Shown: in pieces, positions 19,273 through 22,374 of the stretch
Position numbering within the stretch: position 1 is the first letter of the stretch
Layout: each line of letters opens with the position of its first letter
DNA from: an uncultured Candidatus Binatia bacterium
GTDB taxonomy: Bacteria > Desulfobacterota > Binatia > UBA9968 > JAJDTQ01
Length of the DNA: 64,000 nucleotides
NCBI GenBank assembly: GCA_965213675.1
Contig: OZ243916.1
Coordinates: 864,001-928,000 of the forward strand
Direction of reading: 5' to 3'
Position numbers and translations under genes: made by a program
Notes under the pieces: generated by a model
Databases searched by the model: none
The model's input: the letters and a program-made list of their open reading frames with translations, nothing else
Told to the model about the DNA's origin: nothing

Positions 19273-19730
19273 TGCTGGCGGCCATCCAGCGGTTCTTCAC
19301 GAACCAGATCGACCCCGGACACCGCGATGTGCGCCAGTCGGACCAGCACCGGCTGCAGGTGGCCACCGGTGCCCTGCTCGTGGAGATGATGCGCACAGAT
19401 GTCGAGTGCACGGAGAACGAACGCGCCGTGGTCCTTGGCGCGCTTCAGGACAAGTTCGGTCTCAGCGAGCAGGAGACCCGCGATCTGATGGAACTCGCCG
19501 AGGCCGAAGCCGACGACGCCATCGACCACTACCAGTTCACCTCTCTTGTCAAGAGTGGTTTCTCCGGGGAACAGAAGCGGAAAGTCGTGGAGTATCTCTG
19601 GGCGGTGGCCTACGCCGATGCCAACGCGGACCCGCACGAAGAGTACCTGGTGCGCAAAATTGCCAATCTCATCGGCGTGTCACACAAGGAATTCATCGAA
19701 GCGAAACTCCGGGTGCGGCGCGGCGGCTGA
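19272..19730 (+). CDS. TerB family protein
   Basis: ALLVEMMR.D, QFTSL and LW.VAYAD..D.HEE..VRKIA motifs; TGATG coupling to the Nudix gene. Confidence 0.85.
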   Translation: MLAAIQRFFTNQIDPGHRDVRQSDQHRLQVATGALLVEMMRTDVECTENERAVVLGALQDKFGLSEQETRDLMELAEAEADDAIDHYQFTSLVKSGFSGEQKRKVVEYLWAVAYADANADPHEEYLVRKIANLIGVSHKEFIEAKLRVRRGG

Positions 19731-19778
19731 AACGGGGGGAAGCTCCAACGGCGCAGTGGTTCCCCTGGCTGGTCTGCT

Positions 19779-20120
19779 TCAGCTCAACTTCCCCAGCCTC
19801 AACGGCAAGCGCGTTCCCAGCCACAGGGACCGGTCGCGATGATCGCCGATGTGCTCCCCCGTGCTGGGGTGAATCAGGATGTCGAGGCCTTCGCGGTTGA
19901 GCATGAGCCACGGAACCACGTTGGCAAACTCGTCGGGGGCGAAGGCCACTTGGTACATGGCCTTGGGGTGGGGGCCCACCGGGACGTCGTGCCAGCGGCC
20001 GAGGACGACGTTGAAACGGCCACCGATCCCCTCGCGGACACGCCCCGCCACTTCCCGGGAATCACGGTCGTAATAGATGTGGGCGTGGTAGCCGGAGATT
20101 TCGCTGGCGTCTTGCGTCAT
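19779..20120 (-). CDS. DOPA 4,5-dioxygenase family protein
   Basis: YHAHIY, PVGPHP, WL.LNR.GL.IL.HP.TG and DH....WLG motifs. Confidence 0.9.
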   Translation of the reverse strand: MTQDASEISGYHAHIYYDRDSREVAGRVREGIGGRFNVVLGRWHDVPVGPHPKAMYQVAFAPDEFANVVPWLMLNREGLDILIHPSTGEHIGDHRDRSLWLGTRLPLRLGKLS

Positions 20121-20223
20121 GTCTCTGCCTCGATGGGGTCGGGAAGCCTGCATCGCAAAATCCGTGACCGGACGGTCGCCCCTGGCCTGCTCAAACCCGA
20201 CAGGCTCCTGGTACGCATTTCAC

Positions 20224-20260
20224 AAAGAAAAGCGGGCCCTCCTCCCGGGAAGAGCCCGCT
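20224..20260 (-). terminator. Intrinsic terminator
   Basis: 12-bp hairpin AGCGGGCUCUUC/GGAGGGCCCGCU followed by UUUCUUU. Confidence 0.8.
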
Positions 20261-20593
20261 ACCGGCGTTTATCCACGCCGGTGGATGCGTTTCTTTCTTG
20301 TTCGGCTCCCCGGTCGCGGGTTGCCGTTGAGGAACTTCCGGGATTGCTGTCCTGTGCTGCCGTTTCCCCTCACACGTTATACGCTACAGCCGTGTTGTCC
20401 AACACCTGAGTCGGGACGGTCAGCCGGTAGCCGTCTTCGGCAAGCCTCCCGGGGAACCCTGTCAGCCCGCCTGACGCGGGCGTTTCGTGTCGGGCGGATT
20501 GTTTGTAGTCATCTGACACCTCCTGGCAGTTTGATGACCAAGCCCGAAACCAGCGCGCGGGGTTTCGAACTCTTGCCCGTTCGCGAACGACAC
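20224..20593 (-). ncRNA. Candidate large structured RNA (~370 nt), family unassigned
   Basis: Own promoter and terminator, many local and long-range helices, no convincing long ORF. Confidence 0.6.
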
Positions 20594-20599
20594 AAGACA

Positions 20600-20628
20600 A
20601 TCCTAGGCCCGCATCGGCCCGCTGTCAA
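20600..20628 (-). promoter_or_regulatory. Near-consensus sigma70 promoter
   Basis: TTGACA-N17-TAGGAT with an upstream T-tract. Confidence 0.75.
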
Positions 20629-20694
20629 GAAAAAAAGACGCGCGTGAGGACGATCCCACGTTGATCGAGCATCGGCGTCCCGGGCCGGGGGGGT

Positions 20695-20786
20695 TCGTTC
20701 CAGTCCGCACGAGGCCTCGTTCCGTCGAAAGGACGCTGTCCGAACCTCCGGCTTCCGTGCGAACCGGTCGCGTGGGATAGTCCTGG
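20695..20786 (+). repeat. ~92-bp intergenic repeat, copy 2
   Basis: Homologous to 18363-18455. Confidence 0.85.
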
Positions 20787-20868
20787 ACGCGCGGTTCACG
20801 TTGTTGAAGGGCAACCGCGGAGTTGATACGGGAAAGAGATCAACGGCTCGGAACGGGAAAGGGACGTC

Positions 20869-22374
20869 ATGGCAAACGAATACGATGTGATCCTGGTGGG
20901 AGGGGGCTCCGCGGGTTGTGCGGCCGCGGCGCGTCTTTCGGAAGACCCCAACCGGAAGGTGTTGCTGCTGGAGGCCGGCCCCGACCCCCTGCCCATCCCC
21001 GAGTTGGTGGCCGAGGCCGCGGGCCGGGTGCGGCTCCTGCTGGAGACGCCCTACATCAACATGTACCCGACGGAGCGGAAGCTCGACGGCAGCACGTTCT
21101 ATTCCCTGGCCGGAAAGATCATGGGCGGCGGCTCGTCTGTCAACGTGATGTCGGTGATCCGCCCCATCAAGGCCGACATGGACGCGTGGGCCGCGGCCGG
21201 GAACCCGTCCTGGTCGTGGGCGGACGTCCTGCCCATCCTCAAGCGACTGGAGAACGATCAGGACAACTCCGACAGTCCCGAGCACGGCCACGGCGGGCCG
21301 CTGTTCTTCGAGCGGCACTATCTCTTCGGCCAGGAAGTCCCGCGCGCCGTGCAGGTCTTCATGGACGCGGCGCGAGAGCTGGGGTTGCCCCAAGGCGACG
21401 TGAACGACCCGAATCCCTGGGGCCTCTGCACATCGCCCTACAACATCAAGGAGGGCATGCGGCAGTCCACGACCGTCGCCTACCTGAACGCGGCCCGGGA
21501 GCGTGCCAATCTCACCGTCATCGCCGACGCCCCCGTGGTTTCGCTTGCCGTGTCCGGCCACCGTGTGACCGGTGTGAACTACGAGAAGGACGGCCAGCGG
21601 CACACGGCGGCCGGCACCGAGGTCGTGCTTGCCGCAGGGGCGTTCCACAGCCCCCACATCATGATGCTCTCGGGCATCGGGCCGGCGGCGGAGTTGGAAC
21701 GGCACGGCATCGAGGTGCTTCACGACCGTCCCGGGGTGGGCGAAAACTACCAGGACCACGCCATGTTGCACATGGGCTTCGAGGGACGCGGCGCCTTCGA
21801 CGTGGACTGGGTGGTGCCGCCCTTCCGGCTGATCACCAAGAGCGACCCGTCACGGGAAACCGGCGATTTCCATGTGTTCATGCGCCCGCCTACCGTGCTG
21901 GAGGGCGTGGGCCGGACGCTGAACATCTCCGCGGCGCTCCTGGAACAGCGCAACCGCGGCCGCGTCTTCCTCCAGAGCGCCGATCCCCACGAACTGCCGG
22001 GGGTGGATGCGCGCATGCTGGAGCACCCCGGAGACATCGCGGCGATGGTGGCTACCATGGAGTTCCTGGAGAAATTGAGCCAGACCGGCGACATGCCCGA
22101 GTACTACGGCCCGCCCATCCAGCCCAAACGCGGCGAGGACTGGGCGCGATTCGCACGCACCGCCTTCGACAGCTACCACCACGCCGCCGGCACCTGCCTC
22201 ATGGGTCCCGCGTCCAACGACATGACGGTGGTGGACGAGCAGCTACGGGTCCACGGAATCGACAATCTCAGGGTAGCGGATGCCTCCATTATGCCCACGG
22301 TGACCCACGCCAACACCAACGTCACCTGCATGATGATCGGCGAACGGGTGGCGGACTTCATCAAGGGGATTTAG
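20869..22374 (+). CDS. GMC family FAD oxidoreductase (choline dehydrogenase-like)
   Basis: GGGSAG, GK.MGGGSSVN, SGIG, VGENYQDH, H.AGTC.MG, RVADAS and NTN motifs. Confidence 0.94.
   Translation: MANEYDVILVGGGSAGCAAAARLSEDPNRKVLLLEAGPDPLPIPELVAEAAGRVRLLLETPYINMYPTERKLDGSTFYSLAGKIMGGGSSVNVMSVIRPIKADMDAWAAAGNPSWSWADVLPILKRLENDQDNSDSPEHGHGGPLFFERHYLFGQEVPRAVQVFMDAARELGLPQGDVNDPNPWGLCTSPYNIKEGMRQSTTVAYLNAARERANLTVIADAPVVSLAVSGHRVTGVNYEKDGQRHTAAGTEVVLAAGAFHSPHIMMLSGIGPAAELERHGIEVLHDRPGVGENYQDHAMLHMGFEGRGAFDVDWVVPPFRLITKSDPSRETGDFHVFMRPPTVLEGVGRTLNISAALLEQRNRGRVFLQSADPHELPGVDARMLEHPGDIAAMVATMEFLEKLSQTGDMPEYYGPPIQPKRGEDWARFARTAFDSYHHAAGTCLMGPASNDMTVVDEQLRVHGIDNLRVADASIMPTVTHANTNVTCMMIGERVADFIKGI

Follow-up and report, generated by a model that had tools for sequence, protein, structure and literature searches.

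Does the 715-nucleotide (nt) gap between a GMC oxidoreductase gene and a gene of the PF08883 family encode an RNA that stands by itself, or the leader of the gene that follows? The gap lies in a 64,000-nt stretch of DNA from an uncultured Candidatus Binatia bacterium (GenBank assembly GCA_965213675.1, contig OZ243916.1, positions 864,001 to 928,000 of the forward strand), which we call the window and to which all coordinates refer unless a locus is named. The original prediction, made from the letters of the DNA, proposed an undescribed structured RNA of about 370 nt on the minus strand with its own promoter and terminator, either a stand-alone noncoding RNA or a leader of the dioxygenase-family gene. 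Having compared the locus with its relatives, we are highly confident that the RNA is real, conserved and structured, and that it contains a tiny open reading frame (ORF) that is under selection. As to the choice that the prediction left, each option has its own setting and neither suffices alone: the RNA appears to be a leader in the genus of the window and a self-contained unit in a wider family.

A structured RNA conserved across one genus

Homologues of the element, which is present in a single copy in its own genome, were found in 25 of the 27 other genomes of the genus, at 68–86% identity over nearly the full 441-nt query; the same query matched nothing in 13 other genera of the order, represented by 33 genomes. 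The 26 genus sequences were aligned (alignment A1, on which the structural counts in this section are based), and a structure of 86 pairs in 15 helices was curated from them. Across these pairs 95.5% of cells are paired, as opposed to 38–51% when the 3′ partners are slid, and both sides change in 16 pairs, as opposed to 7–12 in the slid controls; none of 500 shuffles matches the curated structure on any measure. Homologues and covariation, both among the checks that the original prediction had asked for, are in hand. Support is best for helices H2, P2, T1 and H1, and helices H3, H4, P3, P4 and P5 are invariant and so uninformative for covariation. A ranking of column pairs in the style of mutual information was dominated by clade structure and served as a lead only. 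The alignment hardly varies at the promoter, the 5′ hairpin, the hairpin with AGGAGGUG as part of its loop, the two 3′ hairpins and a core of 34 nt. The features of the locus are, in the order of the transcript:

20869–22374, plus strand: GMC oxidoreductase gene, on one side of the 715-nt intergenic gap
20600–20628, minus strand: sigma-70-type promoter from a consensus scan (−35 TTGACA, 17-nt spacer, −10 TAGGAT), with a T tract upstream
20574–20592, minus strand: H1, 5′-terminal hairpin on the palindrome CGUUCGCGAACG; 8 pairs, of which pair 3:21 varies as CG/UA/UG; kept in genome G012
20540–20572, minus strand: H2, hairpin of 9–12 base pairs (bp) whose loop varies in length; both sides change in 7 of 9 pairs, and 92% of cells are paired
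20507–20539, minus strand: H3, stem of 6 bp in which the AUG of the tiny ORF is sequestered, with the Shine–Dalgarno sequence AGGAGGUG (20517–20524) in its loop; invariant in 26 of 26
20462–20512, minus strand: tiny ORF, 16 codons plus stop here (MTTNNPPDTKRPRQAG); core PP[D/E]xxRP, from 56 family sequences
20465–20482, minus strand: H4, hairpin whose 5′ arm is formed by the Arg-Pro codons (CGC CCG); 5 invariant pairs and one that is UG/CG/UA
20304–20458, minus strand: domain 2, a stacked rod P1-P2-P3x-P3 closing a junction of P4/P4′, P5 and the variable hairpins P6 and P7
20392–20425, minus strand: 34-nt core, almost invariant in the genus (A1), including P5 (GUGUU-GGAC-AACAC)
20261–20282, minus strand: T1, penultimate hairpin of the GGCG..CGCC type, from the alignment
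20223–20260, minus strand: T2, 12-bp intrinsic terminator plus U tract, with CCGGGA in its loop, from scan and alignment
19779–20120, minus strand: DOPA-dioxygenase-family gene, 113 amino acids, on the other side of the gap (PF08883, "Dopa 4,5-dioxygenase family", Pfam E = 4.5e-33)

The ends of the unit are where they had been placed. The promoter, TTGACA-N17-TAGGAT at 20628–20600, is present as described and is, by consensus scan, the sole sigma-70-like site in 19500–21500 (1 observed versus 0.2 expected from shuffles); it is kept in all 26 genus sequences and also in G012, a genome of the genus that has lost the body of the RNA. Transcription would start near 20593, and the predicted transcript of 370 nt has a folding energy of −160.8 kcal/mol (z = −3.3); none of 100 shuffles is equally stable. 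Among the public runs listed, the four that contain the stretch are contig sets of one study, and none is an RNA run. The claimed 12-bp terminator with its U tract was likewise recovered, at 20260–20223, and is supported across the genus, with 98.6% of cells paired over the 11 pairs counted. In T1, both sides change in 2 of 7 pairs, and a hairpin of this type was read immediately 5′ of the terminator in every group of the wider family.

Most of the internal helices that had been drawn also hold up. Seven of nine pairs change on both sides in the 12-bp GAGUUCGAAACC/GGUUUCGGGCUU helix; the GGUCAUC/GAUGAC helix and the GUGUU/AACAC hairpin are supported and invariant, and the alignment supports the second-domain helices GGUUCCCCGG/CCGGGGAGCC and UUGCCG/CGGCAA as well as the ACCGGCGU/ACGCCGGU helix near the 3′ end. 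One half of the proposed CCCGC-GUCAG-GCGGG-CUGAC pseudoknot survives, namely CCCGC/GCGGG, which is invariant with a closing pair of UG, CG or UA; the GUCAG/CUGAC half is specific to this genome. The proposed closing helix GUGUCG/CGACAC is not conserved in the alignments as read by eye, and the 5′-terminal hairpin forms in its place. The GACGG/CCGUC and UGAGGGG/UUCCUCA helices also proved not to be conserved; the negatives for all four pairings, the GUCAG/CUGAC half included, come from reading the alignments, without a formal pair count. Within domain 2, P2 pair 207:367 is CG in 15 sequences, GC in 6 and UG in 3. P6 and P7 vary in length and sequence and retain their hairpin form both here and in a second genus introduced below. 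A 26-mer of the 34-nt core, with one free position, matched 17 genome records, every one of them from this genus.

A separate observation concerns the very start of the transcript, where positions +6 to +17 (20577–20588, minus strand) form a perfect palindrome, CGTTCGCGAACG, that is nearly invariant across the genus and survives in G012, where the RNA body is lost. It could act in the DNA, as an operator bound by a dimeric regulator, instead of or besides forming an RNA hairpin.

With the structure in place, the RNA was compared with known classes. At gathering thresholds Rfam 15 has nothing at the RNA locus, and at E ≤ 10 there is a single match, RsmW (RF02809), at 25.6 bits and E = 0.044. 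The description of the RNA as new extends to its relatives: the second-genus locus gave only sub-threshold matches (11–21 bits, with gathering scores of 40–117; six of the eight on the terminator hairpin), and the metagenome groups gave none at E ≤ 1. By these searches the unit appears to belong to a family undescribed in Rfam 15, and one limited literature search surfaced no published noncoding RNA, riboswitch or small RNA from Binatia or Binatota. The window's only Rfam match that reaches its gathering threshold is a tRNA gene at 1344–1415 on the plus strand (63.9 bits).

It is very improbable, in our judgment, that the RNA is instead a diverged member of a described family, such as an Rsm/Csr sponge, 6S RNA, RNase P RNA or tmRNA, that the models missed. 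The RsmW-like match does reflect a likeness, namely two 3′ hairpins of which the last is a terminator with GGA in its loop, and the genome is one without a detected 6S RNA. Set against this, the match falls far short of the gathering score (52) and spans 64 of ~370 nt, and GGA motifs are not enriched in the RNA (10 versus 8.9 ± 2.5 in shuffles). The models for 6S RNA (RF00013), CsrA (PF02599) and Hfq (PF17209), not fully sensitive as control genomes show, found nothing in the genome, which is 97.7% complete. A Csr/Rsm sponge was rejected on the missing GGA enrichment, the failure to find CsrA and the score below gathering. The original prediction had seen no signatures of RNase P RNA, tmRNA or 6S RNA, and this is borne out: RNase P RNA lies at C1:3605987 (297.6 bits) and tmRNA at C1:3630949 (198.2 bits), which excludes both for this locus, and the genome has no 6S match. 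6S RNA was further rejected on the patchy occurrence of the unit, in 2 of 146 sampled genera of the class, which does not fit a housekeeping RNA.

A tiny ORF shared by a wider family

The original prediction also stated that there was no convincing protein gene. This is true of long genes, as discussed at the end of this section, and it overlooks a conserved tiny ORF at 20512–20462. The AUG at 20512 follows AGGAGGUG, a perfect 8-nt Shine–Dalgarno sequence, at a spacing of 4 nt, and the spacer is 3–4 nt in 56 of 56 family sequences. Most members of the genus have an ORF of 12 codons, and the genus peptide reads M-T-K-x-x-P-P-D-x-x-R-P. The stop codon varies in type (TGA, TAG or TAA) and keeps its position, with one genus genome having UAG for UGA there; it lies within or just after the loop of H4, a hairpin that is also found in the second genus and whose loop contains the stop codon of most relatives. 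The stop comes later in the group of six closest sequences to which the window belongs, by 1–4 codons in five of them and by 18 in the sixth.

Beyond the genus, a covariance model built from its sequences (R1) was run over 151 genomes of the class. R1 scores 145–178 bits within the genus, and outside it returned one weak full match, at 26.8 bits, in genome G114 of a second Binatia genus. With G114 in full and two partial matches, R1 missed most of the second-genus copies, and it is therefore too narrow for family-wide searching. The 5′ part of the G114 locus comprises an A tract and TTGACA, the identical Shine–Dalgarno sequence, an AUG in a stem, P-P-E-x-x-R-P and an H4-type hairpin; its 3′ part comprises the CUGACNGUC motif, a P5-type hairpin with compensatory changes, P6/P7 hairpins, a small hairpin and a terminator. 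By inspection, then, the locus is a diverged copy of the whole RNA unit. When G114 was used as a BLAST query, the unit was found in 19 of 28 second-genus genomes, with an ORF of 27 codons in 18 aligned sequences (alignment A3); the 19th, from G203, was read by eye. The second-genus counterpart of H3 is a UCCA(U)/(A)UGGA stem that again pairs with the AUG, and the difference between the two stems may be read as covariation. A combined MAFFT core alignment of both genera (A5) misaligned the 3′ half and was excluded from all counts.

Metagenomes widen the family further. A search pattern consisting of the Shine–Dalgarno sequence, ATG, CCNCC and CGCCCG picked out 64 contigs, 18 of which were accepted as in frame and no longer than 32 codons; Asp or Glu follows Pro-Pro in 18 of 18, although the pattern does not require it. 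The accepted contigs represent at least six ORF subtypes and at least four further groups, and include two new groups, MADLSPPDxNRPS(S/R) and MEDLTPPDHVRPPT..., and two single sequences. The 16 contigs that were inspected share one layout, with a TTGACA promoter, a strong Shine–Dalgarno sequence, a PP[D/E]xxRP ORF, ~300 nt, a penultimate hairpin and a terminator, and the ~300 nt after the ORF are structured wherever tested. Over 401 genomes from 146 genera of the class, the pattern returned the two genera and four isolated matches, at least two of these out of frame, and the reversed-pattern control returned zero. There were likewise no matches to the ORF pattern in viral contigs, and none by BLAST for the RNA of metagenome group 4 in 401 genomes sampled across the phylum.

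Across all of these sequences the most widely shared feature is the PP[D/E]xxRP ORF. Among the 56 family sequences the first Pro codon is CCG in 37, CCA in 18 and CCC in 1, the second CCG in 34, CCC in 21 and CCA in 1, and the Asp/Glu codon GAC in 29, GAA in 17, GAT in 7 and others in 3; the Arg codon is CGC and the final Pro codon CCG in 55 of 56 each. Variation in the Pro-Pro-Asp codons is confined to third positions, and the flanking codons vary freely. Such codon-level conservation suggests that the tiny ORF is translated. What follows Arg-Pro is a stop in 21 sequences, Pro in 24, Ser in 5 and Leu or Arg in 6, which resembles, and is not identical to, the RAPP or Arg-Pro-stop elements of known arrest peptides. 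The peptides are 12, 13, 14, 16, 23, 27, 30 or 32 residues long and are polar and proline-rich; a type I toxin mRNA was rejected on this basis, as the products are not of the small hydrophobic membrane type.

The same data bear on whether the peptide itself might be the product, with the remainder of the transcript a structured 3′ untranslated region. Conservation at the peptide level, wobble-only variation, the very strong Shine–Dalgarno sequence and retention of the motif across groups whose RNA sequence has diverged are all what a small-protein gene would leave behind. Neither the length (12–32 residues) nor the C-terminal part of the peptide is conserved, however, and the RNA that follows the ORF is, inside each genus, conserved at least as well as the ORF, with compensatory changes, which is unexpected of a passive untranslated region. 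We regard a small-protein gene as a doubtful account of the locus.

As to longer frames, 120 codons are open antisense to the RNA at 20285–20647 on the plus strand. A conserved long ORF on either strand was rejected: an antisense stop-free frame exists in 9 of the 26 genus sequences, and its phase differs relative to four conserved anchors. The 120-codon frame is a by-product of G+C-rich composition and not a gene.

The dioxygenase-family gene and other neighbours

Within the genus the dioxygenase-family gene follows the RNA in 26 of 26 genomes. The distance from the U tract to the ATG is 20–41 nt in 24 genomes; the other two, one of them that of the window, have 103 and 105 nt. Such distances leave no room for a separate promoter. 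G012 (L067 1120–1225) serves as a natural "leaderless" control. A deletion in this genome has removed the RNA between H2 and the terminator, leaving a remnant of H2, the 5′ hairpin and the promoter; the retained promoter region is fused ~45 nt before the dioxygenase-family ATG, running directly into the ribosome-binding site of the gene. We take the fusion as decisive: the promoter serves the gene, and the RNA, in this genus, is its 5′ leader; the gene would then be transcribed from the promoter of the RNA by read-through of T2.

Two further genomes of the genus differ in front of this gene. G005 (L052) has ~80 extra bases between terminator and gene, with four TGTCATGGG-like repeats, which may be a small insertion or repeat element. 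G014 (L068 900–1210), the smallest genome of the genus at 2.7 Mb, has a different leader of ~230 nt, with similar −35 and −10 elements and a stretch resembling the P5 hairpin; this is possibly a decayed remnant of the RNA.

Outside the genus the neighbours change. The unit is followed in the second genus by a gene of ~70 codons or by two inserted convergent genes, in group 4 by an ftsK-like gene and in group 3 by a convergent glycosyltransferase-like gene, the names of these genes outside the genus being readings of N-terminal sequences and not Pfam results. Because the unit stands before unrelated or convergent genes, it is best described as self-contained and not as the regulator of one gene class. 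Conservation of the downstream gene, which the original prediction had offered as the way to separate a cis element from a trans RNA, has a split outcome, with the same gene in 26 of 26 genomes of the genus and different genes or none across the wider family. In the second genus, the ~70-codon ORF starts MRVQQIDLSY and lies ~60 nt downstream in about half of the genomes; in the remaining genomes the two convergent genes sit between it and the RNA. Of 6 second-genus loci inspected (L095–L112), 3 have a small GYD-like gene immediately upstream of the RNA, on its strand.

This diversity bears directly on two further accounts. A metabolite riboswitch, with domain 2 as an aptamer controlling the terminator for the dioxygenase-family gene and the ORF as an accessory, would explain why a large, conserved multi-helix domain with invariant core nucleotides sits directly before a terminator and a gene. 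Structure and covariation are indeed present, but the genes downstream (dioxygenase-family, ftsK, a small gene or none) are not functionally related, as those behind a riboswitch would be. The distribution is atypical in a second way: the dioxygenase-family gene is present in 59 of 61 genomes of the order, yet motifs of the RNA were seen upstream of it in 0 of 18 further genomes inspected. There is no match to an Rfam aptamer and no evidence of the ligand type, and we consider a riboswitch improbable.

The other account is a structured RNA that acts in trans by binding a protein or by base-pairing, with the ORF secondary, stabilising the RNA through ribosomes at its 5′ end for example, and with the gene using leftover read-through. 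We judge this unlikely, although several features speak for it. The unit is kept where only convergent genes follow (group 3 and two checked second-genus genomes), it comes with a promoter of its own and a strong terminator, domain 2 holds the near-invariant 34-nt core, and the penultimate hairpin and terminator are common to all groups, as read. The part shared most widely is nevertheless the ORF motif, and the 3′ domain differs strongly between groups, as the R1 scores for the two genera illustrate; moreover, neither CsrA nor Hfq homologues were found in the genome, and no target was identified.

Ribosome pausing and the closest known systems

What, then, might join a peptide motif to a large RNA domain? 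We put at about even the chance that ribosome pausing gates the folding of the RNA and its termination. The layout that would permit this begins with a strong sigma-70 promoter and a short 5′ part, followed by a very strong ribosome-binding site, the tiny ORF, a structured domain of 250–300 nt, a small hairpin and the terminator. Two predicted slow spots, Pro-Pro-Asp/Glu, which is known to cause pauses that depend on elongation factor P (EF-P), and Arg-Pro followed by a stop or Pro, would hold the ribosome exactly at the basal helix of the structured domain. In the window this helix would be H4, whose 5′ arm is formed by the Arg-Pro codons 6 nt before P1, and in group 4 it would be the domain closing helix, which in the minimum-energy fold is formed by the Arg-Pro-Pro codons. 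The dwell time of the ribosome would set the fold of the downstream domain, and that fold would set the share of transcription that passes T2. In this genus the read-through transcript would be the dioxygenase-family mRNA, and dwell time would set its expression. The terminated RNA of ~370 nt is probably a functional product as well: relatives keep the unit without a co-oriented downstream gene, which implies that the RNA, or the peptide, has a function of its own.

Published work on proline-rich pausing is consistent with such a mechanism. Ribosome profiling of Escherichia coli lacking EF-P places PPD only among the pausing PPX motifs, and pauses at PPE are listed (PMC4140641). At the pyrL terminator, termination rises when a polyproline pause breaks the coupling between ribosome and RNA polymerase (PMC5021804).

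Several observations weigh against gating by a paused ribosome. No covariation-supported alternative between terminator and antiterminator was found, and the candidates seen by eye are not general: the 3′ strand of P1 is complementary to the T2 5′ arm in most genus members, with uncompensated changes in G004 and G003, and the string of Arg-Pro codons is identical to the end of the 3′ arm of T2 in group 4 and in this genus, and differs from it in most of the second genus. The motif itself is imperfect. Phe replaces Asp in two genus members, Arg-Pro-stop is not universal, given the six close relatives with later stops, and the conservation of CGC CCG could stem from the H4 helix instead of the peptide. 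Near-invariance over 34 nt exceeds the needs of a simple folding switch and hints at a bound ligand or protein. Finally, where the unit has no co-oriented gene, control of read-through cannot be its whole function.

We offer tentatively a more far-reaching reading, which we hold to be rather unlikely. The unit would be a free-standing, "ribosome-gated" riboregulator in which the ribosome is parked at the basal helix of the domain by a pause peptide kept universally, PP[D/E]xxRP, and which acts in trans and, where a gene follows, also by read-through; it would be a portable sensor cassette present in several uncultured lineages. EF-P activity, the supply of Pro-tRNA, or the availability of release factors or ribosomes would be converted into the fold of a ~250-nt RNA, with a possible contribution from a ligand bound by the invariant core.

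Nearest in kind to the unit are proline-codon leader attenuators, arrest peptides and dual-function small RNAs, and it is a member of none of these by sequence or by all of the defining features. The Salmonella mgtA and mgtCBR leaders are controlled by proline-codon leader ORFs, mgtL and mgtP, respectively (PMC3641672, PMC6460261). With these, and with pyrL and trpL, the unit shares a short ORF with its own Shine–Dalgarno sequence inside a long structured leader, and the progress of the ribosome over proline codons, modulated by EF-P, is thought to set both fold and transcription (PMC3641672, PMC6460261, PMC5021804). The general layout of a leader-peptide attenuator is thus present in the window, with a Shine–Dalgarno sequence, a short and presumably translated ORF, an intrinsic terminator and a downstream gene. 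Regulatory codons matched to a downstream pathway are not; the Pro codons are kept, and the genes behind them are PF08883, ftsK-like, a small gene or none. The unit differs further from these attenuators in that it has no relation to them by sequence or in Rfam, its core PP[D/E]xxRP is conserved across lineages and its downstream genes are not, its structured part is larger (~250 nt), and it also occurs without a co-oriented gene.

TnaC ends in Arg-Pro-stop. Together with SecM and the RAPP/RGPP-type peptides ApdA and ApdP, it provides a second likeness, a C-terminal Arg-(x)-Pro-Pro or Arg-Pro-stop element that slows peptidyl transfer or termination and is used to regulate downstream expression. 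The RAPP type is reported to arrest at Arg-Ala-Pro-Pro (PMC10951233, PMC7897499, PMC10987492, PMC12992588). The family described here has instead Arg-Pro followed by a stop, Pro or Ser, without Ala or Gly, and its arrest is a prediction; its peptides of 12–32 residues have no signal or membrane segment and no link to a Sec or YidC gene.

Dual-function or attenuator-derived small RNAs such as RNAIII/hld, SgrS/SgrT and rnTrpL/peTrpL combine a small peptide with a structured regulatory RNA. The likeness is that one transcript holds both and that a terminated leader can be a product of its own; the RNA here is larger than most of these and has no homology to them.

These findings give good support to a family of structured RNAs that is so far undescribed and that occurs in Binatia, here represented by metagenome-assembled genomes only, and in further metagenome lineages. 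The family is unusual in two respects: what it conserves best is a nascent-peptide motif of 7 residues, composed of elements known to slow translation and coupled to a large RNA domain that covaries; and the unit occurs both as the leader of a gene and alone. The unit is also a useful case for the co-evolution of leader peptides and RNA domains. If pausing does gate the RNA, nature would have provided a compact sensor of translation capacity. The unit provides, in addition, the first regulatory handle on the widespread and uncharacterised bacterial PF08883 "DOPA-dioxygenase-family" proteins.

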